NCBI GenBank assembly: GCA_964472785.1
Contig: CAYYMH010000004.1
Location: 66,995-130,994 of the forward strand
Length of the DNA stretch: 64,000 nucleotides
Origin: an uncultured Cytophagia bacterium
GTDB taxonomy: Bacteria; Zhuqueibacterota; Zhuqueibacteria; Thermofontimicrobiales; Thermofontimicrobiaceae
Reading direction: 5' to 3'
Of the stretch, positions 402-64,000 are shown one piece after another (position 1 is the first letter of the stretch; each line of letters begins with the position of its first letter). The translations under genes and the position numbers were made by a program. Below the pieces are notes generated by a model. It was not told the origin of the DNA and searched no databases. It saw nothing but the letters and a program-made list of their open reading frames with translations.

Positions 402-592
402 AACCACCCTCAATTCATTTTTTTATGAGAATCGACCACAAGAACCACGTTGAAAAAGTCGAAACTCATTATTCAATTCTTATCAGATCAAACATCCGAT
501 AAGAGGCTCTAACTTTTTGAAAAAACTATTTATTAACTAACGTTCAAATAATGCATCGCGTTCCGTTATTTCAGTGTTGATCAGAAATTATT

Positions 593-1264: not shown

Positions 1265-1298
1265 CTTTAAATCCTTTGTCTGATTTTCAATATGTTCA

Positions 1299-2057: not shown

Positions 2058-2141
2058 GACTAATTAATTTTTCTCGTTTCTGAAAGGATTTAGTTCAGTA
2101 AATTAAATCTAATCTTTGCCAGCTCGCCTCAAATCACTGTT

Positions 2142-3986
2142 TCAATCTTTTTTACCCAATGCCCGATCCAGGTTGAACGCTGCGCTGATTAACGCTAAAT
2201 GAGTAAACGCCTGCGGAAAATTACCCAATGCTTCACCACTGGCGCCAATTTCTTCGCCGTACAAACCGAGATGATTCGCATATCCCAACATTTTTTCAAA
2301 AATCAGCCGAGCCTCCTCCAGCCGATCGGAATCAAACCGACCCGCGCGTGACAATGCTTCCACCAGCCAGAACGAACAAATGGTAAACGTTCCTTCATCG
2401 CCTTTTAAGCCATCGGGCGCCTCTGTTACATCGTAACGGTAAACCAGACTGTTGGAAACCAGTCCGCCTTTTTCCGGAGATTGATTTATAGCGTTCAGAG
2501 TTTTAATCATCCTCGGATCGGTTGGCGACAGAAAGAATACCAGCGGCATCATTAAATTTGACGCATCCAAAGTATTGCTGCCATAGCTCTGTACAAACGC
2601 TTCACGATCCGGACTCCAACCTTTTTTCATAATTTCTTCATAGATTTCATCACGGCATTTTAGCCAGCGGTCATGATCGGCCGGAAAAGAACGTTTATTT
2701 GCAAGACGTATGGCTCGATCCACAGCCACCCAGCACATTAATTTTGAATAAACAAAATGTCTTTTCCCACCACGTACTTCCCAGATCCCCTCATCCTCCT
2801 TGTTCCAATTCTCACACACATAATTGACCAAACGTCGCAAAGATGTCCACATATCGTAGGAAATCGGACTACCATATTTATTGAACAGATAGACTGAGTC
2901 CATCAACTCACCGTAAATATCCAATTGTAATTGATTATAAGCGCCGTTACCGACACGAACCGGTTTTGATCCTTTGTAACCTTTGAGATGATCCAAAATT
3001 TCTTCTTTCAACTCGTGACGTCCGTCAATGCCATACATCAATTGCAGGGAACCGTCTGGGTTCATTTCTTTGGTTCTTTTTTCAATCCAATTCATAAAAT
3101 GTGCTGCTTCATCGGTGAAACCAATGCGAAGTAATCCATAAAGCGTAAATGCAGCATCCCGGATCCAAGTGTACCGATAGTCCCAATTCCGTTCTCCGCC
3201 GACGCTTTCCGGCAAACTACAGGTCGGCGCTGCGACAATCGCGCCTGTCGGTTCGTAGGTTAATAATTTCAATGTCAGAGCAGAGCGATGAACCATTTCC
3301 CGCCAGCGGCCTGTATAGGTACATTTTGATATCCATCGACGCCAGTAATCTACAGTTTCTGTGAATAGCTCGTGAACAGCATCATGTGACGGACACACGG
3401 GACATGATGCATTCGATTTTGCTTCTTCCAATACGAAAACAGCTTTTTCCCCTTCAGCTAAATCAAAATCCGCAGTAGCGCCACTTCCATCAGCCTTTAG
3501 AGAGACATCTGTTTTTAACCACAAGCTCAATTTTTCAGAATTAAAGTAAGCGCCGTTTTCACTGACCGTTAATTCATGTTGATCTCGGGCATAATTAAAC
3601 GCCGGATAACATGCAACGTTGAATGTCATTTTACCTCTAACCACGTTGACCAAACGTATCAATCTGTGGTGCTTTTGTTTCTCGCCTGTGTTTTCAACAG
3701 GCATAAAATCAGTAATTTCAGCCACACCATCGGAACAAAGAAATCGGCTAATGAGCACATTTGTTTCGGGCCAATAAAATTGTTTGTATGTTACCTTTTC
3801 CCGTTTCAGCGAAATTTGAAAAAACCCGCCCTTTTCGTCATCCAGAATCGAAGCGAAAATACTGGGCGAGTCAAAATGCGGAAAGCATAACCAGTCAATT
3901 GAACCATTTATTCCGACCAAAGCCAGGGTGTGCATATCCCCGATGATACCATAATTTTCGATGGGTTGGTAAGCCATTTTTAACAT
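2142..3986 (-). CDS. Glycoside hydrolase family 15 (glucoamylase/trehalase-like)
   Basis: [27 protein letters not shown] and [13 protein letters not shown] motifs; N-terminal [21 protein letters not shown]. Confidence 0.93.
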
Positions 3987-4052
3987 CCTTTTGGTTTTAT
4001 GTGCTAAATGGTGTCTATCCGAAAAATACCAAAATAGACCTCACCTTGAGGA

Positions 4053-4175
4053 GCTGTATCAAAAGTTAACTTGTAGTGACGAATTTATTCGTCAAATCCC
4101 ACATTCTGTATGGAGCGAATAAATTCGCTACTACAAATTGGGCTAAACATCTTGCATCGGGACTTTTGATACAGC
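4053..4175. mobile_element. MITE-like cassette: 14-bp perfect terminal inverted repeats around a REP doublet
   Basis: GCTGTATCAAAAGT (4053-4066) and ACTTTTGATACAGC (4162-4175). Inside are two inverted hairpins, TTGTAGTGACGAATTTATTCG (4071-4091) and CGAATAAATTCGCTACTACAA (4116-4136). Confidence 0.7.
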
Positions 4176-4190
4176 CCCTGAACAGACGTT

Positions 4191-4231
4191 CCCCTTCTCC
4201 ATTTGGGAGAAGGGGTTAGGGGATGAGGTCT
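4191..4231. repeat. REP-like hairpin element CCCCTTCTCC-ATTTG-GGAGAAGGGG
   Basis: 10-bp perfect stem followed by TTAGGGGATGAGGTCT. Confidence 0.6.
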
Positions 4232-4357
4232 AACATAATAAAATTTGAAAATATCATCCCAATTGCCGATTTCGGTTTTTTCGTACGCACAGTAAATAGA
4301 AATTTAGTGAACTGTAAAATACTTATCATTGATAAACTGAGTAGTGTGATATTTCAA

Positions 4358-5206
4358 TCAACCGCCGGTTGCGAACCCCGGATAAAGCGTCATCCCACCA
4401 TCTACAATCAAACTGGTTCCGTGGACATAATCCGCCTGATCTGAGGCTAACCAGACGACCGCCCTGCCGATATCGTCCGCTTCACCGATGCGATTGTAAG
4501 GAATCAAAGACATTAAATCCTGATATGCCTTTTCCGTATCCCAGGCAGCTTTATTAATTGGTGTTTTAATAGCGCCGGGCGCTACGCTATTTACGCGAAT
4601 ACGATAAGCGCCAACTTCCTGGGCAATCGATTTCATCAGCAGCATTACTCCACCTTTGGATGCTGCATAATTGGCATGTCCTGCCCATGGTATGATTTCA
4701 TGCACTGAACTGATAAAAATAATTTTTCCCGCTGCACAGGATATTTCCTCAACAACGCCACGACTTTTAAATTCTCTAACCGCTTCCCGTGCGCATAAAA
4801 ACGACCCATTGAGATTGACACCGATCACCGCATTCCATTGATCCATTGTCATCTCATCAAACGGCGCATCGCGTTGAATACCTGCGTTGTTCACTAAAAT
4901 ATCAATTGTACCAAACTTTTCCTTCATCTCAGCGAACATCTTCTTAACCTGTTTTTCATCGGATACGTCCGCCTTGTGAGCGTAAGCCTGACGACCTGCC
5001 GATTTGATGCTCTCGACAACTTCCTGAGCGGCTTCTTCACCGACAATGTAATTGACCACTATATCTGCTCCGGCTTGCCCCAACGCCATGGCAATTCCTT
5101 TACCAATACCAGAATTGGCACCGGTAACTAATGCCTTTTGGCCTTTCAGATTTTTTTCCATTGAAGGCTTTGGCATCACCACATCCGGAATTTTATTATT
5201 GCTCAT
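4358..5206 (-). CDS. gdh: Glucose 1-dehydrogenase-like SDR oxidoreductase
   Basis: TGANSGIG, NNAG and YAASKGG motifs; C-terminal VDGGMTLYPGF typical of glucose 1-dehydrogenase family SDRs; adjacent to the GH15 gene. Confidence 0.8.
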   Translation of the reverse strand: MSNNKIPDVVMPKPSMEKNLKGQKALVTGANSGIGKGIAMALGQAGADIVVNYIVGEEAAQEVVESIKSAGRQAYAHKADVSDEKQVKKMFAEMKEKFGTIDILVNNAGIQRDAPFDEMTMDQWNAVIGVNLNGSFLCAREAVREFKSRGVVEEISCAAGKIIFISSVHEIIPWAGHANYAASKGGVMLLMKSIAQEVGAYRIRVNSVAPGAIKTPINKAAWDTEKAYQDLMSLIPYNRIGEADDIGRAVVWLASDQADYVHGTSLIVDGGMTLYPGFATGG

Positions 5207-5239
5207 ATTCGAGCTCCATTAATTTTTAAAAATATTTTA

Positions 5240-5986
5240 TTAAATAAATGCCTTGAGTTCACTCCCTGCGGCTTCATCCACATACCAATCCAAAATGCCA
5301 GATTTTGGATTGACACACGCTGCCGGTAACGCGTTAATCTCTTTTTTCGAAATCAAAATTTTATTTACTAATTCTCTTTTCCTTTTCCCTGTAACGAGAA
5401 ATGACACCCGCTTTGCTTGATTGATGGTTTTTAAAGTCAGCGAAATCCTCTTTTGTCCTGTTAACGGGTGTTGAGTTACGGTGGTTATATTCTGGTTATT
5501 AAATTCGTTTTTTGAATTCGGAAAAATTGAAGCGGTATGTCCATCCTCTCCCATGCCTAAAAAAATCCAGTCAAATTGCGGTACCTCGTCACGATTCTTT
5601 GGGGCGATACGATCAACTAACCGATGATAACGAGTGGCCTCTGTCTCAGGATCATTTTCCCCTTTGATCCGGTAGATATTTCTTTCAGGAATATTAGTTT
5701 GATTGAGCAGAGTTTTCTCGGTCATCCCATAATTGCTCTCTGCATCTTCGGGTGGTACGCAGCGTTCATCACCCCAAAAAAATTGGACATATTTCCAGCA
5801 GATATGATCGTTCATGTCACGTTCGACCAACGCCTTAAAAAACTGTTGGGGCGTCGATCCCCCAGAAATTGCAATAAACATTGCTTGCTCATTAGCCGCG
5901 AAATCATTCACTTTTTTTTGAAATTCAATTGCTAACGACTCGGCTAATTCATTAGCCGATTTGAATATTTTTATCTGTGGTTTCAT
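5240..5986 (-). CDS. pgl: 6-phosphogluconolactonase
   Basis: ISGGSTP, FWGDERCV and LGMGEDGHTASIFP motifs; likely start ATG 5986, right after the zwf stop. Confidence 0.93.
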   Translation of the reverse strand: MKPQIKIFKSANELAESLAIEFQKKVNDFAANEQAMFIAISGGSTPQQFFKALVERDMNDHICWKYVQFFWGDERCVPPEDAESNYGMTEKTLLNQTNIPERNIYRIKGENDPETEATRYHRLVDRIAPKNRDEVPQFDWIFLGMGEDGHTASIFPNSKNEFNNQNITTVTQHPLTGQKRISLTLKTINQAKRVSFLVTGKRKRELVNKILISKKEINALPAACVNPKSGILDWYVDEAAGSELKAFI

Positions 5987-9997: not shown

Positions 9998-10055
9998 TTA
10001 CTGTTCCTATTTTTTATTTCATTCGATCCGCCTTTACCGCACCTGTTTATTGGAA

Positions 10056-11495
10056 CTATTTTCCAATTATTTTTCTCACAAACTTCACCACCGCATTATC
10101 AGTTAATCGCGCCGCAAAAGCCTGAGTTGCGGGTCGCTTTACCATGTCACCATAGGTCGGATAAATATGGATCATCTTCTGAATTTTGTGAAATGGGATG
10201 CCCAGAGATTTCGCAAGCTGGGCTTCATGCAAAAGATCAGCCGCGCGCTCACCGATAATATGAATACCGAGCAGATTTCCACCTTTGCCAACAACAAACT
10301 TGCTCATTCCCGTAGTCTCCAAATCAGTTTTTGCCCGATCAACTTTCTCATAATTGAATGTGTAAACTTTGACTTTTTTACCGTATTTTTCCCGGGACTC
10401 CTGTTCGGTTAAGCCAGCATGAGCAAACTCAGGATCAGTAAAAGTTGACCACACAATATTTTCGTAATTTACTTTTCGTTTGATCGGTAACGGTAAAACT
10501 GCATTCGGTACAGCAATGCCAGCGTGGTATTCAGCAATATGGCTGAACTGATAAGACCCGATGACATCGCCCAAAGCATAAATATTTTTCGCAGTCGTGC
10601 GCAATGTTTGATCCGTTTTAATTCCTTTTTGGGAATATTCCACACCGGCATTCTCCAAATCCAATCCATCCACATTGGGTCGCCTGCCCACTGCAATCAG
10701 CACGTTGTCAGCCTCAATCTCTTTATCATTACCATTTTGATTGTTTTTTACGGAAACAACAACCTTGTCTCCCTTTTTTGCAAGCGCCATTGCTCTGGAT
10801 TGGGTCAAAAATTCGACCCCATCGTCAACCATTCGATCCATGAGAATTTTAACTAATTCACGGTCTTCCCGAGAAAGGATGTGGTCAGTCATTTCAACTT
10901 GAGTGACTTTTACACCCAACCGGCTTAGTGCAGATGCCATCTCGGTTCCGATGGGTCCGCCGCCAATAATGATGATGGATTCAGGAAGTTTGTCCAGTTC
11001 AAAAATATTTTCATTGGTTAAATATGGGACGTCTTCTATCCCCTCAATAGGCGGAACAAAAGGACTGGACCCGGTTGAAATGATAAATTTATTTGAAGAA
11101 ATCGTCTGGTCACCAATTTTCAAATGGTGATTATCGATAAATTTTGGAGATCCAATAAATACGTTAATCCCCATGTCTTCAAACACTTCAGGCTTCTCTT
11201 CCTCGTACACCTGCTCGCGAATTTTCCGAACATGCGCCATCACATTGTCCGTATTTAATTCCATCTTTCCAGCAACTGTTAACCCGTATTTTTCGAGTTT
11301 CTTTACATGATCGGCAATCTCACTGGATTTGATTAACGCCTTGCTGGGCACACATCCGTACCAGGTACAATCCCCACCTATTTTTTTCTTTTCAATAAAA
11401 GCAACTTTTTTCCCCAATCTATTTCCAAGTATCGCTGAACTGATTCCTCCAGAACCCGCTCCGATAACCGTTAAATCATAGTCATAGTTAGCCAT
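10056..11495 (-). CDS. Class I pyridine nucleotide-disulfide oxidoreductase (MerA/Lpd-like, no metal-binding C-terminal CC)
   Basis: GAGSGG, redox-active GGDCTWYGCVPSK, GGGPIG and HIYPT motifs; no HMA domain and no terminal Cys-Cys. Confidence 0.88.
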   Translation of the reverse strand: MANYDYDLTVIGAGSGGISSAILGNRLGKKVAFIEKKKIGGDCTWYGCVPSKALIKSSEIADHVKKLEKYGLTVAGKMELNTDNVMAHVRKIREQVYEEEKPEVFEDMGINVFIGSPKFIDNHHLKIGDQTISSNKFIISTGSSPFVPPIEGIEDVPYLTNENIFELDKLPESIIIIGGGPIGTEMASALSRLGVKVTQVEMTDHILSREDRELVKILMDRMVDDGVEFLTQSRAMALAKKGDKVVVSVKNNQNGNDKEIEADNVLIAVGRRPNVDGLDLENAGVEYSQKGIKTDQTLRTTAKNIYALGDVIGSYQFSHIAEYHAGIAVPNAVLPLPIKRKVNYENIVWSTFTDPEFAHAGLTEQESREKYGKKVKVYTFNYEKVDRAKTDLETTGMSKFVVGKGGNLLGIHIIGERAADLLHEAQLAKSLGIPFHKIQKMIHIYPTYGDMVKRPATQAFAARLTDNAVVKFVRKIIGK

Positions 11496-11509
11496 TTCAA
11501 AACTCCTAT

Positions 11510-11815
11510 TTACGTTTCATTTTCATCATTTATTTTTTTAAATTCCCAAATCATCGGTACAATCATCATAATCATCAAAGCGACAACCGTGCTAATTAAA
11601 AAGCTCAAACCTAAAGAAATATCAGTAACAAGTAGAAAATGTAAAAACCTTTCTGCAGCCACGAACAATCCTATTAGCACGACAACTGCAAAAAGCCAGT
11701 TGCGAAATCGAATTTGATTTCCGCAGGAAGGACAAGTAAATTTACCCCAATTATCCCAACCTTTGATAATAGAAACCGGTCCGATTTTCATTCCACATTC
11801 AGGACATTTACCCAT
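11510..11815 (-). CDS. Small membrane protein with an N-terminal zinc-ribbon (CPEC...CPSC)
   Basis: Two CxxC pairs then two hydrophobic helices; GGAG Shine-Dalgarno before ATG 11815. Confidence 0.7.
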   Translation of the reverse strand: MGKCPECGMKIGPVSIIKGWDNWGKFTCPSCGNQIRFRNWLFAVVVLIGLFVAAERFLHFLLVTDISLGLSFLISTVVALMIMMIVPMIWEFKKINDENET

Positions 11816-11842
11816 TTTTATCTCCAATATTTAATTATTCAA

Positions 11843-12019
11843 TGTTTGAACGAAAACTCTAATTTTTGTCATTTTGAGGAGTACCTCGTCAAGCTCGGCA
11901 TAAACTCCACCACGAAAAATCTCATCCCACTAAGTGCTTGTCTATGTTAGGCTTATTGGTGTGAAATTCTTCATCCGCCGAAGGCGGATTCAGAATGACA
12001 TTTTGTTTTCGTTTAATCA
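11843..12019. repeat. REP doublet (TGTCATTYTGA...TCAGAATGACA) inside imperfect outer inverted repeats
   Basis: TGTCATTTTGA 11867-11877 and TCAGAATGACA 11990-12000; hairpin ATCCGCCGAAGGCGGAT; outer TGTTTGAACGAAAAC 11843-11857 vs GTTTTCGTTTAATCA 12005-12019 (13/15 match). Confidence 0.65.
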
Positions 12020-12070
12020 TTACTTATCAATTTCATAAAGTTAATTCATAACTTCCCATCTAATATAAAA

Positions 12071-12781
12071 CTACATTCGTTCGGGAACAGGCGTTTTTAT
12101 ATTCTTCCGTTTTTTAATTTTTTTAAAAATTGTCGGTATGAACATAAGTAAAATGAATATTCCCAACGCAACAAAAAACTGCACGGAAATGATGTTATCT
12201 AAAGAACTACCAAGCATCGCATTAATGAAGCCGCCAGGAGCCATTCCAATAAATGAAGCAATGAAAAAGTCTCGAAATTTAATTTTCGAAAGTCCGGCTC
12301 CAAAGTTTACTGCATCGTATTGAAAAAGAGGAATCAATCGCATGAAGATCATCATTCGAAATCCGTTTTTTTCGATGCTATCATCGAATGATTTGATACG
12401 CCCTTTGTGAAGCCATTCAAAATGTTCGATAAATTTTCTGCCGAAAACCCGGGCGATCATAAACGAAAGTGATGCACCCAAGGTCGCCCCTATTAAAATA
12501 TAAATCGTTCCGAACCACTTTCCAAAAGCCAAACCACCTGCGAGTGACATGACTCCGACAGGAATCACAAGCACTGCACCGCGAAGCGCATAAATGACCA
12601 TAAAAACGATCGGCGCCCAGATACCAAAACTTAAAATGAAATCACGAATTTTTTCAGGTTTGAAGTCCGATATTTTCAAAGGTGTTAATCTGAATACAAT
12701 CGCTATGATTGCTATAATTGCCATCAGTATCAGAATCCTGATCCATTTATTCATTTTATTACCGCTATCTTGTTGTTCCAT
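12071..12781 (-). CDS. TVP38/TMEM64 (DedA/VTT, SNARE-associated) membrane protein
   Basis: LAGGLAFG, GATLGASLSF and MRLIPLFQYDAVNFGAG motifs. Confidence 0.9.
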   Translation of the reverse strand: MEQQDSGNKMNKWIRILILMAIIAIIAIVFRLTPLKISDFKPEKIRDFILSFGIWAPIVFMVIYALRGAVLVIPVGVMSLAGGLAFGKWFGTIYILIGATLGASLSFMIARVFGRKFIEHFEWLHKGRIKSFDDSIEKNGFRMMIFMRLIPLFQYDAVNFGAGLSKIKFRDFFIASFIGMAPGGFINAMLGSSLDNIISVQFFVALGIFILLMFIPTIFKKIKKRKNIKTPVPERM

Positions 12782-12831
12782 CGTATTACTCCGTATGAGT
12801 TATTTTTGAATAGTCATATTAAATACTATTT

Positions 12832-13524
12832 TCATTTTCCCAAATCTACATACTTGGTATTTGGATTATCCAACTTCCATTGTCTCCACGTGGTCAACGT
12901 TGACGGAATTTCATCGACGACCTGATCCGCGTACAAACCGCTGATACAAACAAGCGGCGTGCTTCCTTCTTTGAAATTCACATACGGATACCATATACTT
13001 TCGGTCTGATGATCGTACAGTAAAAACGTTCTCTCATAAGTCCACCCACTGGGAGCAAAGGTTAATGTTTCGCCTTCAATGTCACGGCTGTACACGACAG
13101 CCAAATTTTCCAGCGGTCAGTAATTAACCGAAACATTAAGCCCGCCAATTCTATCGTTCACAACTTCATGGCTCGCCAATATCTGCACAGGATAAGCCCT
13201 CACATCATCATTAATATTTACTCCAATGACAGAAATTCCAGAATTGTCACTGGGGTATCCATTCATCCCTTCAGATATGACTTGCGGGAAATTAATTGGC
13301 TGAATTGCATTCGGACCAAGTCCATAATTAAATTTTCCCGGCTCTAATCCGTACTCTTTCACCGCATGGGTAATATCCCATTCTTTACCAGTTCTGTCAG
13401 TAATTGTGACCTGATTATTGGTATCATCCTCTGTTATGTCAGAATTTGTGCTACTTTTATTTTTACAGGACTGTGCGATCAAAACAACTAAAGTAATGAT
13501 CAAAAACATTTTGAATAATTTCAT
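12832..13524 (-). CDS. DUF3179 (seleno)lipoprotein, 230 aa, with Sec at codon 136 (joins two track ORFs across an in-frame TGA)
   Basis: Track ORFs 13117-13524 and 12832-13104 are in the same frame, separated only by TGA CCG CTG GAA AAT. Read-through gives VSVNY-U-PLENLAVVYSR, matching the DUF3179 VTYCPL motif. Downstream SGWTY...YDHQTESIW matches the family. Lipobox-like IAQSC. Confidence 0.85.
13086..13119 (-). promoter_or_regulatory. Bacterial SECIS-like element
   Basis: mRNA reads UGA, 14 nt, then GGCUGU-CGUGU-ACAGCC: a perfect 6-bp stem with G then U in the apical loop, the loop starting 20 nt after UGA. Confidence 0.7.
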
Positions 13525-13543
13525 CTGATTTTCTCCTTAATAA

Positions 13544-14260
13544 TTAAGCTTTAAATGAAAATTCCCGTTCAAATAATTTTTTTAAAATCGTATACGTTTT
13601 TTTCTTATAAAAAAATTGATGTTCTAAATTGCGTCTTTTCAGATGCTCCCACAAAGCGACTAAATCATCATAGGTATCGATATCATATTTCATTTCCAAT
13701 TGGGCAATTTCCAAATCTTTTTTTTGTGCACAATTTATTGTTTGCTGAAACACAATACTCGTGCTCCAATCGATATATTTGAACAATACCGGATAAAATT
13801 TAGTCGAACCGATCAAATAATAACCTCCGTCGTTAGCAAGCCCTAAAACGATATCGTTCTCATCCAATGCCGTAAAGCCGCGAATAATTGTGGTTTTATC
13901 CAAAGTCGGAATATCACTCCCGATCAACAATACCTTTTCGTAACCTTCATCAAAAATTTCACGCATGGCATTGGACATTTTTTCTCCCAGATCACGACCG
14001 TGCTGCTGATAATAATCCAAATCATCTCCCAGCCAATTTTTGATCATCTCATCAGCATGAGACGGTGTGTAAAACCATTTGACATCACAAAACTTGACAT
14101 CTTTGAACAGTTCAGCCAAATCCTCAACCATTGCCTGATATAATTCCAGCGACTCCTCCGGCGCTAATTGGGGTTGAAGCCGGGTTTTTACATTGCCGTA
14201 CTCTGGTGCTTTTATAAATATAATTAATGCATTATTTTTTTTTGATGTTGTGCCATTCAT
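13544..14260 (-). CDS. TIGR04282-type transferase (DUF2064, GT-A-like; 'rSAM/selenodomain-associated transferase 1')
   Basis: FIKAPEYGNVKTRL, QHGRDLGEKM, LIGSDIP, LGLANDGGYYLIG and DIDT..DL motifs. Confidence 0.88.
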   Translation of the reverse strand: MNGTTSKKNNALIIFIKAPEYGNVKTRLQPQLAPEESLELYQAMVEDLAELFKDVKFCDVKWFYTPSHADEMIKNWLGDDLDYYQQHGRDLGEKMSNAMREIFDEGYEKVLLIGSDIPTLDKTTIIRGFTALDENDIVLGLANDGGYYLIGSTKFYPVLFKYIDWSTSIVFQQTINCAQKKDLEIAQLEMKYDIDTYDDLVALWEHLKRRNLEHQFFYKKKTYTILKKLFEREFSFKA

Positions 14261-55993: not shown

Positions 55994-58078
55994 ATGAAAT
56001 TTCGCTTTCATTTTTCATTTGTAATCTTGATCCTCATTTTGAGCAATTCAATCTCTGCTCAAAATGCACCCTGGCACCATCAAACGCTGGTCGCCGATAG
56101 CATCGTCAATGCATTCATCGATGAGGTATCCGGTGAAATCGCCATGAACCATTGCGTCGAGATGTCAGCTTACAACCGCAATCGCCCGGTATCAGAGTAC
56201 CGGCAAAATTATTTAGAAGCAGACTATGTTTTTGACAAAGCAAAAGCATTCAAATTCGACCGGGTGGAGTTTGAATATTTTAAAGCCGATTCGATCTGGG
56301 ACGGCGAAGTGGGTGAACTCTGGGAAGTTTCTCCGCGCAAAAATCGGAAAATTGCCGATTACGACAACATGACTGCTGTGCTGGCGCGAGGCAGTCAAAC
56401 AACAGATGTCACCGCCGAACTTATTTATGTCGGTAACGGCGCGTTTGATGCAGATTATGACAGTATCGACGTTGCCGGTAAAATTGTGCTGGGCTACGCT
56501 TCAGTCGGTCGATTGCATTATCAGGCTGTCCAAAGAAGAAATGCCGCAGGCGTGATTTCCTTTTCATCAAGCAGGCCGCTGGAAAGTCCGGAACAAATCC
56601 CCTGGCACAGCATTTACAGCCGCGAAGGCAACCCAACCTTTGGCTTCAATCTGGATCAATTTCGCGGCATGGAATTGCGCAATCGACTCGAACGCGGTGA
56701 GAAAATAAAAATGCGCGCCATTGTCAAATCTTTGGTGCAGCCGAACCGTCACAATGTGGTGTGGGCGGATATTACCGGAAGCGATTTACCGGACGAATCC
56801 GTTATTTTGTGCGCCCATCTTTTTGAGGGCATCGTCAAACAAGGCGCTAACGACAACATCAGTGGCAGTGCTGTGCTGCTCGAAGTTGGCAGAACGATTC
56901 AGCAGCTCATCCAAAACAGAGTGATCGAACGTCCCCGCCGCACTATTCGCTTTCTCTGGATTCCTGAATTCTCCGGCTCGATTCCATGGGTGAATGAGCA
57001 CTTGGATTTGATCGAATCCACACTGGTCAACATTAATCTGGACATGGTCGGTTTACATCTTTCGAAAAGCTACAGCCGCTTCAACCTGGAACGCACCCCA
57101 TTCTCACGCCCAAGTTATCTGAATGACGTGATTGAAAGTGTCATGGATTACGTGAATCAGACAAACTGGGAAACACTGCACAACCGCAGTTTCACAAATC
57201 CTATTTTAGCGCCAACCGGTTCACGGGAACCATTTTATCAAAATATCGATTTCCATTACGGCGCATCCGATCACGTGGTTTTCAACGACTGGGGTGTCGG
57301 CGTGCCGGCAGTGATGCTGATCACCTGGCCCGATCTTTGGTATCACTCCTCTGAAGACCGTCCGGACAAATTGGATGCCACTCAATTGAAACGAGCCGGT
57401 TTTATCAGTGCTCTTTCAGCCTACATTATTGCTGCTGCGGATGAGACGATTGTGCTCCGAATGGCATCGGAAATTTACAGCAACGGACTGAAACGATTGG
57501 GCAATGAATATCAGCGGGCTGCCGAAATACTGACCTTCCGAAAAACAGAATCATTAACACCGGTTTTCAAACGTTCACAAAATATTATTCAGATCGCCGC
57601 TGATCTTGAAAATCGTACCTTGCTGTCATTGTTGGAACTGGCGCCGAAAAGTCAACCGATTTCACAACAGATCAATTTTTCCACAAATTCAATTACCACG
57701 GTGATCGAGCCACAGTTGCAAAATCAGTTGATCCAGCATTACCATCATCTTTGTAAATTGAACGGAATACTGGCTGAGTTTCCGACACTGTCCGCCACCG
57801 AACAGAAGGCAAAAACGATAATTCCCCAACCAACATCTAAAGTGAAAGGCTATTTTCAAAGAGAGTGGATCAATGATGTTGTCGAAAAGTCAGTCCGCGA
57901 CAGTTTGACGACAATCAGTTGGCGCAAAACCCGGGAATTGCGGAATCTGATTGACGGAGAGCGCGACGCTTTGGAAATCAAAAATGTGCTCGATGCCGAG
58001 TATGAGCAGCCCACGGAAATGGAAGAGGTGTTTAATTATTTGGAATTACTGAAACGGGCTGGATTGATTACAATGTAA
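55994..58078 (+). CDS. M28-family metallopeptidase with a PA domain
   Basis: Signal peptide; PA-like GKIVL region; AH, GANDNISG, NLDMVG, SDH.VF and YHSSEDRPD motifs. Confidence 0.82.
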   Translation: MKFRFHFSFVILILILSNSISAQNAPWHHQTLVADSIVNAFIDEVSGEIAMNHCVEMSAYNRNRPVSEYRQNYLEADYVFDKAKAFKFDRVEFEYFKADSIWDGEVGELWEVSPRKNRKIADYDNMTAVLARGSQTTDVTAELIYVGNGAFDADYDSIDVAGKIVLGYASVGRLHYQAVQRRNAAGVISFSSSRPLESPEQIPWHSIYSREGNPTFGFNLDQFRGMELRNRLERGEKIKMRAIVKSLVQPNRHNVVWADITGSDLPDESVILCAHLFEGIVKQGANDNISGSAVLLEVGRTIQQLIQNRVIERPRRTIRFLWIPEFSGSIPWVNEHLDLIESTLVNINLDMVGLHLSKSYSRFNLERTPFSRPSYLNDVIESVMDYVNQTNWETLHNRSFTNPILAPTGSREPFYQNIDFHYGASDHVVFNDWGVGVPAVMLITWPDLWYHSSEDRPDKLDATQLKRAGFISALSAYIIAAADETIVLRMASEIYSNGLKRLGNEYQRAAEILTFRKTESLTPVFKRSQNIIQIAADLENRTLLSLLELAPKSQPISQQINFSTNSITTVIEPQLQNQLIQHYHHLCKLNGILAEFPTLSATEQKAKTIIPQPTSKVKGYFQREWINDVVEKSVRDSLTTISWRKTRELRNLIDGERDALEIKNVLDAEYEQPTEMEEVFNYLELLKRAGLITM

Positions 58079-58116
58079 ATTGCCCCCTTTTTAAATAAAA
58101 TCTTTTGCTATACCAT

Positions 58117-58180
58117 GCAAAGCCGCAAAATGCACAAAATTTTTAAAAAATATTTTTCTTGGCGATATTTGCGGCTTTGC
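58117..58180. repeat. 13-bp perfect intergenic inverted repeat GCAAAGCCGCAAA / TTTGCGGCTTTGC
   Basis: 58117-58129 and 58168-58180. Confidence 0.7.
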
Positions 58181-58214
58181 GTGATAATAACTGTTTAAAA
58201 TCAGGAGTAAATAA

Positions 58215-60632
58215 ATGACTTACCGAAGAATATTGATTGTTCTTTTATTTTCAATTTGTTATGTCAGCAGCGGAATTAGCCAATCAGAGGAACCATCCGA
58301 AAAACTGGATCAGCTTACTGTCGAAAAGATTATGCGCGATCCCCGGTGGATTGACAGCTCACCGAATGGTATTTATTGGTCTGATGATAGTAAATACATT
58401 TACTTCGACTGGAATCCGGAAAATGCCCCGGATGATTCTCTTTATCGAGTTCCAGTGAATGGCGGCGAGCCTGAAAAAGTCTCAATCGAGGATCAAAAAA
58501 ATCTTCCCTCGCGATGGGGCGATGAGAATCGATCATTCACCAAAAAAGTCTATCAGAAAAATGGTGACATTTTTTTATTGGACATCAAAAAAGGAATCAC
58601 AGAACAGCTCACCAATACGCTGGAACGTGAGTCTGATACCCGATTTTCTTTTGATGAAAAGAAAATCATTTTTGAAAAAGACGACAATCTATTTTTCTGG
58701 CATTTGGAGAAAAAACACGTCACTCAACTCACCGATTTCCGTTCCAGTTCAAAAAAAGATGACGACAAAAAACCGGATTCTAAACAGGAACAGTGGTTAA
58801 AACAGGAGCAATTGAAGCTATTTGAAGTATTAAAAGCCCGGAAAGAAAAAAGTGACATGCAGAAGGAAGCCCGAAAAAAATTTGAGCCTGAACGTCCCAA
58901 AGAAATTTACATCGGCAAACAGCGCGTCAGCAATACCCAGTTGAGCCCGGATGAACGATTTGTCACATTTAACTTGAGCCGGCGCGCCAGCGGTGTTAAA
59001 AATACGGTTGTGCCCAATTACGTGACCGAATCCGGTTTTACTGAAGATCTGCCTACCCGATCAAAAACCGGCACGCCTCAGGGCATACAAAAATTTATGA
59101 TTTACAACATCGAAAAGGATTCTGTATTTGAGGTCAAAACCGACCATCTCCCTAATATTTTCGATCAACCGGAATTTTTAGAGGTTGAAACGGACACCAT
59201 AGCACAGGAGACTGCAAAAATCCATTCTGATAAAGAAAAGCAAAAACCAAGACCGGTTTATTTTTACGGACCGCTCTGGTCAGATGACGGGAAAAAGGCG
59301 GTCATGGCGCTGCGGTCTCAGGATAATAAAGATTATTGGATCGTGCAACTATTTCCCGAAACTGCCAAACTCAAACCGCTCTATCATCATCACGATGAAG
59401 CGTGGATCGGCGGACCGGGCGTCAATTTCTGGCGGCTCGAACAAATGATGGGTTGGATGCCGGACAACCGCCGGATTTGGTTCCAGTCAGAGGAGAGCGG
59501 ATTCAATCATCTGTACACGCTCGATATTTCAGATGGTACTAAAAAGCAACTTACGCAAGGCAATTACGAAATCTACTCGCCGCACATGTCGCGGGATAAA
59601 AAGTACTGGTATTTCAGCGCCAATAGAACACATCCCGGAGAACGGCATTTTTATCGCATGAATTTGGACGGAATACAGTTAACCCAAATCACGACGCCGA
59701 CAGGTCACAATCGGATCTATTTATCGCCGGATGAAAAAACACTGGCAGTGCGCTATTCCTACACCAACAAACCTTGGGAATTATTTATCCAAAAAAACAA
59801 ACCGGGCGCGACCATGACACAGCTCACCCACTCGGTCAGTAACGAATTTCAATCCTATCCCTGGCGTGACCCGAAAATTGTCACCTTCCAAGCCAGCGAC
59901 AGCGCTGAAGTTTACGCGCGGCTTTATCAACCGAAAGATGATCAAGCCAACCAGAAAGCCGTCATTTTTGTGCACGGCGCCGGGTATTTGCAAAACGCTC
60001 ACAAATGGTGGAGCAGTTATTTTCGGGAGTACATGTTCCATAATTTATTAGCAGATCGCGGCTACACGGTTCTGGACATCGACTATCGCGGCAGCGCCGG
60101 TTACGGACGCGACTGGCGCACGGCGATTTACCGACACATGGGCGGAAAAGACCTGTCCGATCAGGTGGACGGCGCCCGGTTTCTGGTTGACAACTACGGT
60201 ATTAATCCGAACCGAATCGGAATTTACGGCGGCTCTTACGGCGGATTTATTACGCTGATGGCCATGTTCACCGAACCGGATGTTTTTGCTGCCGGCGCTG
60301 CACTGCGTCCGGTTACGGACTGGTCGCATTACAGCCACTGGTACACTTCCAACATTTTGAACGTGCCCACTGCCGACAGTTTGGCGTACGCGCGCAGCTC
60401 TCCCATTTATTTTGCCGAAGGACTGAAAGGAGCGCTGCTCATCTGCCACGGCATGATCGACCGCAACGTCCATTTTCAGGATGCGGTCAGATTGGCGCAG
60501 CGGCTGATCGAATTGGGCAAGGAAAACTGGGAACTGGCAGTCTATCCGCTGGAAGGACACAGCTTCAGAGAATCCAGCAGTTGGACCGATGAGTACAAGC
60601 GGATTTTGAAGCTGTTTGAGGAGAATTTGTAA
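58215..60632 (+). CDS. S9 family (prolyl oligopeptidase/DPP IV-like) serine peptidase
   Basis: Signal peptide; beta-propeller region; GGSYGG nucleophile; HGMIDRNV (Asp); EGHSF (His). Confidence 0.92.
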   Translation: MTYRRILIVLLFSICYVSSGISQSEEPSEKLDQLTVEKIMRDPRWIDSSPNGIYWSDDSKYIYFDWNPENAPDDSLYRVPVNGGEPEKVSIEDQKNLPSRWGDENRSFTKKVYQKNGDIFLLDIKKGITEQLTNTLERESDTRFSFDEKKIIFEKDDNLFFWHLEKKHVTQLTDFRSSSKKDDDKKPDSKQEQWLKQEQLKLFEVLKARKEKSDMQKEARKKFEPERPKEIYIGKQRVSNTQLSPDERFVTFNLSRRASGVKNTVVPNYVTESGFTEDLPTRSKTGTPQGIQKFMIYNIEKDSVFEVKTDHLPNIFDQPEFLEVETDTIAQETAKIHSDKEKQKPRPVYFYGPLWSDDGKKAVMALRSQDNKDYWIVQLFPETAKLKPLYHHHDEAWIGGPGVNFWRLEQMMGWMPDNRRIWFQSEESGFNHLYTLDISDGTKKQLTQGNYEIYSPHMSRDKKYWYFSANRTHPGERHFYRMNLDGIQLTQITTPTGHNRIYLSPDEKTLAVRYSYTNKPWELFIQKNKPGATMTQLTHSVSNEFQSYPWRDPKIVTFQASDSAEVYARLYQPKDDQANQKAVIFVHGAGYLQNAHKWWSSYFREYMFHNLLADRGYTVLDIDYRGSAGYGRDWRTAIYRHMGGKDLSDQVDGARFLVDNYGINPNRIGIYGGSYGGFITLMAMFTEPDVFAAGAALRPVTDWSHYSHWYTSNILNVPTADSLAYARSSPIYFAEGLKGALLICHGMIDRNVHFQDAVRLAQRLIELGKENWELAVYPLEGHSFRESSSWTDEYKRILKLFEENL

Positions 60633-60677
60633 GATTATCGATTGGCTTAACTCAAAGTGCTATCATTTTAGTTTGGA

Positions 60678-60831
60678 ACTATATCAAAAGTTCAATTTAC
60701 TGTCACTCCTGCGTATGTGACCGAAGGAAGTACCTGTGGTACAGGAATCCCATAATCCGATAAATTTTGTGGAGATTCCGGGACAATCCCGGAATGACAT
60801 GTTAACTCGGGATTTTTACGTTTGATACAGT
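60678..60831. mobile_element. Second MITE-like cassette with CTGTATCAAAAGT-type ends around a different REP doublet
   Basis: ACTATATCAAAAGT 60678-60691 vs ACGTTTGATACAGT 60818-60831 (12/14 inverted match); inner TGTCACTCC...GGAATCC and GGAGATTCCGGGACAATCCCGGAATGACA. Confidence 0.6.
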
Positions 60832-60885
60832 CCTAATAACCACTGCCGTCGGTTTCAAAGTTTACTAATTGAAAATAGCGACATT

Positions 60886-60955
60886 TATATTTCGTCCCTA
60901 CGGGACTCCGCTTTTTTTTGTAATTGGCTATAAATATTTACTCGCTAACGCGACT
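60886..60955. repeat. Two REP-like units (ATATTTCGTCCCTACGGGAC type)
   Basis: TATATTTCGTCCCTACGGGACT and the degenerate CTATAAATATTTACTCGCTAACGCGACT. Confidence 0.5.
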
Positions 60956-61095
60956 TTTTTTATGAGCTATTTTGATATTGTGATAAGATCTATTAGCAAC
61001 TCGAAAACTTAAGGACCAATAGGCACGATATATTTAATCCGTGAAAATCCGTGCCAATCTGTGGCTAAAAAAAAACAAAACACCCCAACTTTCCC

Positions 61096-61124
61096 TTGCA
61101 TCTTTCTTTCAGATATTGTATTAT
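61096..61124 (+). promoter_or_regulatory. Possible sigma70 promoter of the CHAT-NB-ARC-TPR gene
   Basis: TTGCAT-17 nt-TATTAT, with TG immediately before the -10. Confidence 0.45.
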
Positions 61125-61186
61125 TTGATATAAATTTTTCGAAATTCTTTTACTGTTCTGCTGAAAATAAAAAAGAGGGGCTTACC

Positions 61187-64000
61187 GTGATTACTATTCT
61201 CGACTTTCAGATAACAGCCAAATCCGAAAATAACTTTGCACTGGAAATCTTCCAACGCGACAGCAGCCAGCCGCTGGCAAAAACCAAGTTCGAGTTCCAA
61301 CTGGATTACATGACCGACTTTCAACTGAACCAGCTCGAATTTGACGGCAGAGATCCGGCAGGGCGGTTTGACCGGCTAAAGGAGTTCGGCAAAACACTGT
61401 ATCAAAAATTGTTCACCCCGGAGGTTGAAAAAATTTGGGAGGAATACAAAACCGACAGTGATTTTTTGGTGCTCTGCCTGCGCATCGATCCCGAAACATC
61501 GGGGCTGGAAAAGCTGCCCTGGGAGACGCTGAACAATGGCGAGGAATTTATTGCCGCGGGCGCGAAAACCGGCATGTCGCGGCTGCCGCTGGACATCGCG
61601 CCGCAAAAAACGCTGGACCCAATTCCCCGACCGCTCAACATGTTGGCGCTGGTCTCCAGTCCGATGGATTTAGGTGATGGTGAACGGCTGAACATGGAGC
61701 AGGAACAGGAACATCTGCTGCGGGCAGTCAACGATCCGGCTGGCGCGGGACGCATCGATTTGACCATCGAGGACGAAGCCAAACTTTCGCTGCTGGAAGC
61801 GGAACTGGAAAACGGTTACGCGATTCTGCACTACAGCGGACATGGCTTTTTTGACGAATCCGGCGGCGGACTGCTGCTGGAAAACGACCGCGGCAACAAG
61901 CGCACCACCGGTACCGCGGAAATTTTGGACTCGCTGCAAAAAGGAGAAAAATCGCTGCGTTTAGCCGTGCTCTCCGGCTGTCAGACCGCGCGCACGCTGG
62001 ACAGCGCAGGATTCGCAGATTTAGCCCGCGGACTGATCCGGCGGCGCCATTTGCCCGGTGTGATCGCCATGCAGTTTTCCCTGTCCGATACTGCCGGAAT
62101 GCTGTTTGCCCGCACCCTGTACGAAAAAATCGCTGCGGATCAATCGCTGGAAATCGCGGTGAGCAGCACCCGGCGGGAACTGCTGCGCAGCGATGAAAAT
62201 GTCGTTCGTGCCGATGCGTTTGCACCGGTGCTGCTGACCAGTTGCGGCGAATGCCTGCACACAACAGAACCGGAAACAGCCGACGCCGGCGACGATTTGG
62301 ACATCGATTTCAGTTTTTATCTGCAACTGCCGCAGCTCAAAACCCGGTTTTACGGCAGGCGCAAGGAATACCGCGCCATCCGCGACGGGCTGATCGGGAA
62401 AGATCACCGGCTGGTGATGATTCACGGCATCGGCGGTATCGGTAAAACCGCACTTGCCAGTCACGCGGCTGCCCGGCTCAAAGATCATTTCAAAGGCGTG
62501 TACGCGTTCGACTGTTCCACGGGCGCGCTGTCGCCGGAGAGTGTGCTGCTGGAGCTGCACCGCTATCTAAAACTGCGCGGCGTGAAAGCGCTGGAACAAC
62601 TGCTGCATGCTTCGCTCAAGCCGGCGCAATTGGGCACGTTTCTGGGACAGGTGCTCTGCCAACTGCCATTGCTGCTGATTTTTGATAACTTCGAGAGCCA
62701 GCTCACGGACACGACAAACGGGCACGCCATCCGCGACGATAATCTGCGCGTTTTTCTCAACACGCTGGTGAAAACCACTGAGTCCGGCACCCGCTTTATT
62801 TTCACCAGCCGCTACCTGTTCGATTTGGACGAAAAACGGATCGGTGATGTGATCACGCTGCCGCTGCACGATTTGAGTTTAGCCGAGGCACTGGGGTTGA
62901 TGCAGAAACTGCCCCACCTGTCCCATTCGTCGCACGAAAACAAACTCGCTGCCTTTGAAAAATTCGGCGGTCACCCCTACGCCCTGATCGCGCTGGACCG
63001 CCACTGCGGGGAAGCGCCGCTGGACAAAATTCTCCAAGACGCCCGGTCTGTAAAAAAAGAGCTGCGCGGCTTTCTCGCCATCGAGCTCAATTATAAAAAA
63101 TTGAGCGACCGCAGCCGGGAACTGCTCAATAAATTGGCTGCATTCAAAAAACCAGTGGAACTGGCGGCAGCGGAATGGGTGATGGGTGAGAAGGTAAAAC
63201 TGGGTAAGGATTTTTTGGACAAATTAAACAGAGACGAAATGCCCGATGAATTGAAAAAAATGTCTGATGAAGAATTATTAAAAACATTTGAAGAATACCT
63301 TCCGGAGCAGCGCCGCGCCGAAGACATGAGCCAGCCCATCCGCGAACTGATCAACTGGGGCGTGCTCACGCCGATCTTTGATGACGGAAAAATGCAGGCG
63401 TTGGCAGTGCACAGCCTGGTGCGCGATTTCTGCCGGGATTCGCTCACTCATAAAGTTTGGAAACAGCACCTGATCGATGCGGCAGCTTATTTCACCAATC
63501 AGACCAAACTGGTGAGTCATGACGAAAAATCACCGGCAGCCGTGTTCACTGAAATGGAGGCTTTTGATCTGCTGGTTGAAGCGGAGGAATTTGAGGAGGC
63601 AGCAAATTTGTTAGTAGATGCTCACGAATTAATCAGCCGCTGGGGATTTGACCGCTATCTGGAAAGCCGGTATTTGCTGTTGTTTAAAAAAGTGGATCGA
63701 AAAACTGAACCAGCTTTAATCCATAATCATGCTATGTTATTGGGCCATCGCGGCGATTTCGGGGCGGCGCTGGAAGGGTACCAAAAATCACTGAAAATTG
63801 AAGAGGAACTTGGCAACAAAGCCGGCGTGGCACAATCGCTCCATCAAATCGGCTATATCCATTACCAGCGCGGCGATTACCCGGCGGCGCTGGAAGGGTA
63901 CCAAAAATCACTGAAAATTTTTCAGGATATTGGAGATAAAGCCAGCATTTCAGCCGCGCTCCATCAAATCGGCATGATCCATCAACACCGCGGCGATTAC
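61187..64000 (+). CDS. CHAT (caspase-like) protease - NB-ARC/STAND NTPase - TPR protein, partial (runs off the window end)
   Basis: Manual translation from GTG 61187 (GAGGGG Shine-Dalgarno) is open to the window end. It shows LPWETL, HYSGHG (His, 61841) and LSGCQTA (Cys, 61979), then GIGGIGKT, LLIFDNFE, FIFTSR, GGHPYAL and VHSLVRD, then 40-aa TPRs (AALEGYQKSLKI...LHQIG). Confidence 0.9.
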   Translation, partial: MITILDFQITAKSENNFALEIFQRDSSQPLAKTKFEFQLDYMTDFQLNQLEFDGRDPAGRFDRLKEFGKTLYQKLFTPEVEKIWEEYKTDSDFLVLCLRIDPETSGLEKLPWETLNNGEEFIAAGAKTGMSRLPLDIAPQKTLDPIPRPLNMLALVSSPMDLGDGERLNMEQEQEHLLRAVNDPAGAGRIDLTIEDEAKLSLLEAELENGYAILHYSGHGFFDESGGGLLLENDRGNKRTTGTAEILDSLQKGEKSLRLAVLSGCQTARTLDSAGFADLARGLIRRRHLPGVIAMQFSLSDTAGMLFARTLYEKIAADQSLEIAVSSTRRELLRSDENVVRADAFAPVLLTSCGECLHTTEPETADAGDDLDIDFSFYLQLPQLKTRFYGRRKEYRAIRDGLIGKDHRLVMIHGIGGIGKTALASHAAARLKDHFKGVYAFDCSTGALSPESVLLELHRYLKLRGVKALEQLLHASLKPAQLGTFLGQVLCQLPLLLIFDNFESQLTDTTNGHAIRDDNLRVFLNTLVKTTESGTRFIFTSRYLFDLDEKRIGDVITLPLHDLSLAEALGLMQKLPHLSHSSHENKLAAFEKFGGHPYALIALDRHCGEAPLDKILQDARSVKKELRGFLAIELNYKKLSDRSRELLNKLAAFKKPVELAAAEWVMGEKVKLGKDFLDKLNRDEMPDELKKMSDEELLKTFEEYLPEQRRAEDMSQPIRELINWGVLTPIFDDGKMQALAVHSLVRDFCRDSLTHKVWKQHLIDAAAYFTNQTKLVSHDEKSPAAVFTEMEAFDLLVEAEEFEEAANLLVDAHELISRWGFDRYLESRYLLLFKKVDRKTEPALIHNHAMLLGHRGDFGAALEGYQKSLKIEEELGNKAGVAQSLHQIGYIHYQRGDYPAALEGYQKSLKIFQDIGDKASISAALHQIGMIHQHRGDY
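63763..63919 (+). repeat. 120-bp-period TPR-encoding nucleotide repeats
   Basis: 37 identical nt (GGCGGCGCTGGAAGGGTACCAAAAATCACTGAAAATT) at 63763 and 63883; CTCCATCAAATCGGC and CGCGGCGATT also recur at 120-nt spacing. Confidence 0.9.

Follow-up and report, generated by a model that had tools for sequence, protein, structure and literature searches.

Caspase-like proteases carried on NLR-like ATPases are bacterial counterparts of the apoptosome and the inflammasome. One such protease domain, CHAT, was named for its association with tetratricopeptide repeats (TPRs), and caspase-like N-termini on bacterial AP-ATPases have reportedly been noted since 2002-2004. CATRA ternary conflict systems, which include the small protein CATASP, are said to have been predicted computationally by Burroughs and Aravind in 2020. 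Caspase-like N-termini on bacterial Apaf-1-like STAND proteins are counted as defence effectors in PMC13581612, and CHAT has been listed as a frequent N-terminal domain of bacterial NLRs (bioRxiv 10.1101/2020.01.06.895854). In NLRs of the NB-ARC-TPR type, both fungal and actinobacterial or cyanobacterial, the internal repeats are strongly conserved (Dyrka et al. 2014, 2020; bioRxiv 10.1101/2020.01.06.895854). The downstream targets known so far are few, namely gasdermin, EACC1, Pepco, an MBL nuclease, a hydrolase, Csx30 and PCaspase. A precedent for the present case is the caspase-like Avs12 of Ktedonobacter racemifer, whose cleavage of the small protein EACC1 produces a pore former (Evans et al. 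2025, PMC12642450); EACC1 itself had been described as part of a two-gene system (Kaur et al. 2020, PMC7159879). Here, we analysed a 64,000-nt stretch of DNA (the window; positions 66,995 to 130,994 of contig CAYYMH010000004.1, assembly GCA_964472785.1) from an uncultured bacterium, probably of the KSB1 lineage. At its end starts a gene for a CHAT-STAND-TPR protein (gene A), which is followed beyond the window by genes for a zinc-ribbon-like protein (gene B) and a predicted membrane protein with three transmembrane (TM) helices (gene C). The architecture of gene A is already known, and the undescribed part appears to be the widely conserved output module formed by the zinc ribbon and the TM protein.

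The sequence-only reading of the window had described gene A as an open frame of more than 930 codons with an intact catalytic His/Cys dyad, a full set of STAND motifs and a C-terminal TPR sensor. All four points held. A single frame ran without a stop for 980 codons from 61061 on and was still open where the window ends. The probable start is a GTG at 61187 with AGAGGGG 7 nt upstream, and the product up to the end of the contig has 988 aa (P0002). The gene was absent from the track of open reading frames (ORFs) because its frame exits the window, and ORF lists without open ends drop such frames. The CHAT domain matched PF12770 with an E-value (E) of 2.7e-26 (93.1 bits against a cut-off of 24) over 271 of 289 profile positions. 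AAA_16 (E 8.5e-9) and TPR_12 (E 4.1e-12) were also found above the Pfam cut-offs. More than 120 homologues were 50-61% identical to the first 820 aa, the intact ones being mostly ~1100-1250 aa long. Conservation was assessed by aligning the protein with 29 homologues that are 49-61% identical (30 sequences in all). In the protease, H215, H219 and C265 were invariant; in the NTPase, the Walker A residues, D500, R542 (FTSR), G595 and P597 (GGHPYAL) and H742 (VHSLVRD) were invariant. Since all the named motifs are in place and their residues are invariant, the observation is correct, far beyond chance.

The predicted structure gave the same picture. An AlphaFold2 (AF2) model of the gene A protein was built on the homologue alignment, with a mean predicted local distance difference test (pLDDT) score of 83. 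From the N-terminus on, it contained a small beta domain, an alpha/beta fold of the caspase type, a disordered linker (~aa 355-390), a nucleotide-oligomerisation domain (NOD) with helical and winged-helix parts, and a regular TPR solenoid. H219 and C265 follow strands 213-217 and 259-263, respectively. When the model was compared with the PDB by Foldseek, the best fold neighbour was the archaeal STAND-TPR protein PH0952 (6mfv, E 3.6e-14). CED-4 entries (8jo0, 4m9s, 8jol and 2a5y, E 5e-8 to 8e-7), the wheat resistosome (9h2l, E 2.4e-7) and a SAVED-CHAT filament (8tl0, E 5.8e-6) were also matched, and the TPRs of LGN and kinesin light chain (KLC) were among the neighbours. The TM-scores were low because the query was the entire multidomain model. 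The name NB-ARC, given by the sequence-only reading, was supported by the fold next to CED-4 and the plant resistosome but not by Pfam. PF00931 stayed below threshold in gene A (18.0 bits against 23.5, at aa 436-481 of P0001 only), and a precomputed PF00931 match was present on some homologues. Judged by its motifs and modelled fold, the NTPase is of the AP-ATPase/NB-ARC type despite the sub-threshold Pfam score.

The TPR array is built of regular repeats at both the protein and the DNA level. From 63745 on, Tandem Repeats Finder (TRF) detected 3.4 copies of a tandem repeat with a period of 120 bp, in which 82% of the bases match, and the repeat DNA matched itself at 80-84%. Profile matches in the PDB were to consensus TPR, LGN and KLC, and homologues carry 3-9 units. 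Gene A shares with the bacterial Apaf-1-like proteins and AP-ATPases a caspase-like effector placed directly on an NB-ARC-type NTPase, GxP and MHD-like motifs, and CED-4 and resistosome fold neighbours. However, the bacterial Apaf-1 orthologues described in PMC13581612 carry WD40 propellers, whereas gene A carries TPR_12-type repeats. Like the NLRs of Dyrka et al., it combines an NB-ARC-like NOD with TPR_10/12-type repeats of at least 80% internal DNA identity, and a membrane-targeting partner gene is adjacent. The hosts are different, since those NLRs occur in classic filamentous taxa and the present genes in uncultured KSB1, Planctomycetota and Acidobacteriota lineages. Moreover, the Dyrka NLRs recruit a Bell/HeLo-like partner via a shared amyloid motif, whereas A and C share none and their link is presumably proteolytic. 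The sequence-only reading had also called the gene Avs-type, which was not borne out. None of the Avs/AVAST models in PADLOC v2 (2023; without Avs7-24) was matched, the best being Avs4 at E 0.096, in the P-loop only of a full-length homologue, and no Avs3 or Avs4 structure was among the top 50 Foldseek PDB matches of the model.

The 3′ part of gene A is divided by an assembly gap. The 131-kb contig (C4) ends 150 nt past the window, inside the 120-bp tandem TPR repeat, which broke the assembly. The sequence-only reading had allowed for a frameshift or stop just past the window; none was present in the remaining 150 nt, and the frame was open throughout. No continuation of gene A was found in the same assembly by k-mer overlap or by tblastn with TPR units. 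The sole copy in this genome of a conserved downstream gene (gene C, see below) lies at the very start of contig C27, so the 3′ side of gene A was traced to this place. The genome was derived from a microbial-mat metagenome, and the Logan assembly of this source run was used independently. Its 11.4-kb contig SRR7048221_66684 (L088) matches the start of C27 without a difference and has 397 nt more on the upstream side. The extension encodes ...DIGDKAGVAITHGQFGKLFF...SVRKKWGAKNFAAAWKKATGEDVPKF and then a stop, which is the C-terminal cap ending all full-length family members. Gene A is intact at both ends, and the count of TPR units in the gap is the sole missing part.

Because the gene is cut by a contig end, comes from a metagenome-assembled bin and has a foreign base composition, and because other loci (L112, L086) contain degenerate copies, we considered whether it is a pseudogene in decay or an artefact of assembly or binning, with foreign DNA misplaced. 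However, the 988 codons are open with all conserved residues intact. The gene is joined to typical host genes on the 131-kb contig, and a separate Logan contig of 20.8 kb spans this junction. On the other side of the gap, the intact cap is followed by host genes on C27/L088, and the read depth is alike on either side (15.7 and 16.9). Host-specific dispersed repeats occur upstream of the gene and in the cassette spacers. A pseudogene or artefact is therefore extremely improbable, and we regard it as practically certain that gene A is a real and intact CHAT-STAND-TPR gene. The features of the locus are collected in Table 1.

Table 1. Coordinates of the cassette, of the domains and motifs of gene A and of the upstream spacer (window positions unless a contig is named)
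Feature	Position	Strand	Remarks
Gene A (CHAT-STAND-TPR)	61187..64000, continuing up to the end of the contig (window-equivalent 64150); then L088:3-248	+	This genome's cassette; 5′-complete; resumes with the C-terminal cap and stop on L088 after the assembly gap in the TPR array
N-terminal beta-rich domain without family name, aa 1-40	61187..61306	+	AF2 strands 2-13, 16-23, 31-36, pLDDT ~90; conserved in alignment
CHAT protease (caspase-like, clan CD), aa 66-338	61382..62200	+	Pfam PF12770; His219 at 61841-61843, Cys265 at 61979-61981
HYSGHG	61829-61846	+	CHAT motif
SGCQT	61973-61987	+	CHAT motif
STAND NTPase module (NOD, helical and winged-helix parts), aa ~390-780	62354..63526	+	Pfam AAA_16, motifs, Foldseek
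Walker A GIGGIGKT	62426-62449	+	STAND motif
Walker B LLIFDNFE	62672-62695	+	STAND motif
Sensor-1 FTSR	62801-62812	+	STAND motif
GxP motif GGHPYAL	62966-62986	+	STAND motif
MHD-like VHSLVRD	63407-63427	+	STAND motif
TPR sensor array, 40-aa units, LGN/kinesin-light-chain type	63533..64000	+	Pfam TPR_12, TRF, PDB profile matches
Gene B (zinc ribbon)	L088:386-616		76 aa; this genome's cassette
Gene C (membrane protein)	L088:807-1256		149 aa; this genome's cassette
Non-coding stretch, S9 peptidase gene to gene A	60633..61186	.	554 nt; no long ORF on either strand

A partner or substrate encoded downstream had been suggested from the window alone, and conserved downstream genes were indeed found, their role as substrate being a candidate one. 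ORFs were clustered around 36 homologous loci from species-representative genomes. The sole recurrent neighbour family was a protein of ~150 aa (gene C), encoded on the same strand and usually 100-500 nt downstream of gene A. A second conserved gene of ~65-75 aa (gene B), located between A and C, was revealed by tblastn. Of the 23 genomic loci in which the DNA reached 1.2 kb or more downstream, 21 had the order A, B, C. When metagenome loci were seeded from gene C alone, 37 of the 44 with enough upstream DNA had B between C and A; one of the others had A with no detectable B, and six had B and C with no A. In a Phycisphaerae locus, gene B overlaps the gene A stop by 8 nt. Across 16 loci, the pairwise identities of the genes were tightly correlated (r = 0.95 for A and C, r = 0.85 for A and B; Mantel p <= 0.0005), indicating that the three genes were inherited and transferred as one unit. 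The cassette is kept across at least ten phyla. Scanning the cassette for promoters and terminators gave nothing informative. Taken together, A, B and C very probably form one functional unit.

The partner proteins were then compared with known families. In gene B, C9, C51 and C54 were invariant among 72 sequences, and H15, N10, G11, N17, R46 and R62 were near-invariant. The resulting signature, C-x5-H ... C-x2-C, appears zinc-ribbon-like. Gene C is a predicted inner-membrane protein with three TM helices, its AlphaFold model showing three long helices that each contain a hydrophobic segment (42-64, 76-94 and 130-148). The N-terminal tail of C (aa 1-18) was disordered in the model, and the acidic motif IYDSPPSxPDDDxWL lies in the tail and just past it, with S11, W21, L22 and G25 invariant. 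A tail which is disordered yet has invariant residues is a pattern typical of a recognition or cleavage motif. Neither B nor C matched any family in Pfam (E <= 1), NCBIfam or PADLOC; for the gene A protein as well, nothing was above the NCBIfam cut-off. Gene C was also considered as PycTM (PF18967) and rejected. This genome's copy was unmatched at E <= 10, and the precomputed PycTM matches, faint and on a few gene C homologues only, are uninformative because PF18967 also matched in 10 of 14 control genomes.

When 1.84 billion representatives were searched by profile, gene C proved to be part of a wider unnamed family, with 550 clusters at E <= 1e-3, of which 134 reached E <= 1e-10. In several distant relatives of C (P0308, P0350 and P0387), an N-terminal CxxC...CxxC zinc ribbon is fused on. 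By the Rosetta-stone argument, these fusions suggest that the zinc ribbon and the membrane protein act together. A distant subgroup was related to this genome's partner only at the profile level (E 1e-15 to 1e-18). It occurs in a cluster (L170:6699-10695) that encodes, in this order, a Cys-rich protein of 101 aa, a TM protein of 148 aa that begins within the gene before it, a protein of 173 aa and an 876-aa CHAT, NB-ARC and TPR protein. The latter is 26% identical to this genome's gene A and has an NB-ARC domain above the Pfam cut-off (28.7 bits). A further locus of this distant version was found at L171:3367-4976, and the 173-aa protein, of an unnamed family, is conserved. Thus the TM family is linked to a caspase-like NB-ARC-TPR protein despite deep divergence and rearrangement, which is the strongest evidence here of a functional link. 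The 101-aa Cys-rich protein was not established as a gene B homologue (hhalign E 0.029, probability 1.7%). As a separate observation, the C relatives P0310, P0346, P0362 and P0387 share a conserved C-terminal extension of ~70 aa (...VQFIV...TIPV.LL...Y.VKL...F.K..V.GI.Y), beta-rich in appearance, and some of them have an N-terminal zinc ribbon.

We compared the whole cassette with the described protease systems. Ten protease-associated effector families have been surveyed in PMC12642450, namely MBL, alpha/beta-hydrolase, Pepco, EACC1, PCaspase, bGSDM, CATASP, MPE, CalpT and Csx30. The pair of a zinc ribbon and a three-TM protein is not among them, and no published description of it was found, CATRA/CATASP being compared by description only. 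Similar to Avs12/EACC1, a caspase-superfamily protease with a STAND NTPase and an alpha-repeat sensor stands beside a small non-enzymatic protein which is membrane-active, as is predicted for C. In contrast, EACC1 is encoded 5′ of the protease gene, contains a single conserved TM helix together with beta elements in its ~115 aa, and is covered by a family model of its own. The partners found here are two, a zinc ribbon and a three-TM helical protein, encoded 3′ of the protease gene and without a Pfam model. No EACC1 gene was found 5′ of gene A, where a peptidase gene and then the non-coding spacer lie. As far as CATRA/CATASP is known through the citations in PMC8195603 and PMC12642450, it shares with the cassette a computationally predicted three-gene logic of a caspase-like protease, TPRs and a small protein. 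By those descriptions, a difference is the STAND NTPase that separates the CHAT and TPR parts of gene A. When B and C were searched with Pfam at E <= 1, nothing under the name CATRA or CATASP turned up, the presence of such models in the library being unconfirmed. In bacterial gasdermin systems and in Craspase (Csx29 TPR-CHAT/Csx30), an effector encoded alongside a CHAT or caspase-like protease is licensed when the protease cuts it at a specific site, as is proposed here. In Csx29, however, the TPRs are N-terminal to CHAT and there is no NTPase, whereas in gene A they are C-terminal and an NTPase is present. The sequence-only reading had named gasdermin-like genes and sigma or anti-sigma factors as possible neighbours; no gasdermin fold or family, CRISPR gene or sigma/anti-sigma factor was present at the locus.

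The gene had been noted to be richer in G+C (GC) than the window, suggesting acquisition, and the genome-wide comparison agreed. The GC content of the first 2.4 kb of gene A was 0.545, compared with a genome mean of 0.403 ± 0.034 (z = 4.2), which makes it the most GC-rich 2.4-kb stretch of the 4.66-Mb genome (0 of 7367 windows as high). True orthologues of gene A were present in only 2 of 30 related genomes, and the membrane partner was adjacent in one of them. The STAND relatives closest to gene A are in KSB1 metagenome-assembled genomes (MAGs). Proteins 50-60% identical to A were found in MAGs of KSB1, Calditrichota, Planctomycetota, Acidobacteriota, Abditibacteriota, Omnitrophota, Poribacteria, Aminicenantes, Zixibacteria, Bacteroidota, Bacillota and Pseudomonadota. 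The extreme GC content, the presence in 2 of 30 relatives and the 50-60% identical homologues in at least ten phyla indicate horizontal acquisition. The acquired island is ~5 kb long and reaches from the S9 peptidase gene to the PAP2 gene. A phage origin was considered and rejected; IMG/VR viral contigs contained no family member, TPR and P-loop fragments only.

The cassette is probably a protease-triggered cell-suicide or defence module. Its possible mechanism was deduced by analogy with Apaf-1/CED-4, plant resistosomes, Avs proteins (Avs3/4/7), the Avs12-EACC1 pair and gasdermin systems. The TPR array would bind a trigger, most likely a phage protein or another foreign protein. ATP-dependent oligomerisation of the NTPase would then cluster the CHAT domains, and the protease would be activated by induced proximity. 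The activated protease would cleave the co-encoded B/C pair, the best candidate sites being either the acidic tail of C, which is conserved and unstructured, or the central linker of B, which varies. The freed or remodelled C protein would break membrane integrity, and the infected cell would halt its growth or die (abortive infection). We give a probability of roughly 0.55 to this reading, in which the NLR-like sensor-protease of the cassette cuts and so licenses a membrane effector, with abortive infection as the outcome. A more specific proposal is that B and C together make up a hitherto unrecognised class of membrane death effector licensed by a protease, in addition to gasdermin, EACC1 and Pepco, and the constant output module of horizontally spread NB-ARC-type caspase-like NLRs in at least ten mostly uncultured phyla, with the acidic tail of C as the cleavage site and the zinc ribbon as inhibitor or adaptor. 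This proposal is tentative, its chances being somewhat below even.

If true, one more protease-gated cell-death effector would be added to the catalogue, and defence annotation would gain a three-gene signature overlooked by PADLOC v2. The cassette would also be a simple system that unites a sensor of the NB-ARC type with a caspase-like protease and a membrane executioner. B and C are a further candidate target pair, which is unnamed in the libraries, widely conserved and small (70 and 150 aa).

A number of observations weigh against the abortive-infection reading, among them the loci in which the cassette is incomplete. In a complete 5.2-Mb genome (L085, CP070762.1:3420440-3440901), B and C are present without any STAND remnant, and the metagenome loci with B and C but without A are about 6 of 44. 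In such loci the pair follows a P-type ATPase gene (L105) or lies next to an IS3 transposase (L155). In L134, the zinc ribbon (5047-5274) and the TM protein (5279-5806) follow an unrelated ORF of at least 1647 aa (3-4946), which may be a different sensor sharing the same output pair. As an alternative sensor this ORF was set aside, being a single case that lacks Pfam domains and does not resemble gene A. Conversely, A is found without B and C in L018 and L099; in the latter, a full-length family member of 1195 aa (10001-13588) lies between dnaN and recF in a dnaA-dnaN-recF-gyrB cluster, conserved apart from this gene, on a 1.08-Mb contig. The solitary B and C pairs and the solitary A genes would fit another explanation, in which A acts alone in an Avs-like manner, its protease attacking host or phage proteins, and B and C are a separate hitch-hiking module (a toxin-antitoxin-like or membrane stress pair). 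On the other hand, the gene order is kept in ~85-90% of loci across phyla, translational coupling is seen in some loci, and the divergence of the three genes is tightly correlated. Moreover, the independent linkage of the distant TM relative with a different CHAT-NB-ARC-TPR gene, in another gene order, is hard to account for by hitch-hiking. An independently acting A is therefore quite improbable, and the licensing of a membrane effector by the A protease is preferred. Separately, in the complete genome L085, a TumE-family gene lies ~2 kb upstream of B and C, and a gene for an MBL-fold protein with an anti-Pycsar Apyc1-type match lies ~9 kb downstream.

The comparison with known structures and models gave further points on the same side. 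Gene C had no significant match in the PDB; the best was NINJ1 at E 0.81, and no pore former was matched. When A, B and C were searched with PADLOC v2, only the generic TPR model PDLC01169 was matched. The regular, repetitive TPR array of gene A differs from the sensors of the characterised Avs proteins, which are irregular and enveloping (compare PMC13581612). None of the RNA runs searched for the locus contains the cassette.

The surroundings of the cassette also count on this side. A defence context had been named as a check by the sequence-only reading, and no consistent one was found. The flanks in this genome are peptidase and sialic-acid/PAP2 genes, not defence genes, and in most homologous loci the neighbours are housekeeping genes which differ from genome to genome, with no consistent defence island. 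Among 127 neighbour proteins at 22 loci, matches to defence models were sporadic (PDC-S02, a type II restriction endonuclease, SoFic, PD-Lambda-2_B and MADS; without a background rate), and HigB and a YhcG nuclease were further scattered neighbours. These surroundings favour a non-immune switch, in which A senses a cue from inside the cell or from its environment, such as stress, cell-cell contact or development, and processes B or C for a physiological response rather than death. HetF is a cyanobacterial CHAT protease with a developmental role, and the CHAT region of gene A matched the NCBIfam HetF model weakly (E 1e-13, far below the cut-off), which also points to such a switch. The same is true of the hosts, which are mat, soil and sediment bacteria with large genomes, and of the many STAND clades that are regulators interspersed with defence clades (PMC13581612). 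However, gene A is mobile, patchy and compositionally foreign, which is atypical of a core regulator. Family searches found no DNA-binding, sigma or kinase output domain in the A, B or C proteins, and the variation of the TPR count from 3 to 9 units resembles that in allorecognition and immune NLRs. We consider a non-immune switch rather unlikely; if it were true, a role would still be assigned to several hundred unannotated membrane-protein clusters. Protease-triggered abortive infection is thus the reading that we retain.

The borders of the island were also inspected. Upstream, the region 55994-60632 of the window encodes a 694-aa protein, which we take from its translation to be a secreted M28-type aminopeptidase, and an 805-aa protein, presumably an S9 prolyl-oligopeptidase/DPP-type enzyme. 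The spacer between these genes and gene A is probably the left edge of the inserted island. An Rfam scan of this spacer gave no match, and no direct or inverted local repeats were found in it. A dispersed repeat of ~100-220 nt lies just 5′ of gene A at ~60861-61081. By blastn, at least 15 partial copies with 70-89% identity are present on other contigs, including C47, C64, C39, C90, C27 and C44, and the repeat may be an element of the miniature inverted-repeat transposable element (MITE) type or the repetitive extragenic palindromic (REP) type. On the 3′ side of gene C, convergent PAP2 and NeuB genes have a host-like low GC content. The occurrence of host-specific dispersed repeats both in the upstream spacer and between the cassette genes suggests that the island has been in the lineage for some while. 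The spacers of the cassette (L088:249-385 and L088:617-806), which are unusually long, are filled with GC-rich palindromes, for example CCCCCTTTCAAGGGGGATTTAGGGGGATGTC. These palindromes recur on contigs C5, C81 and C28, host-type repeats having invaded the acquired island.

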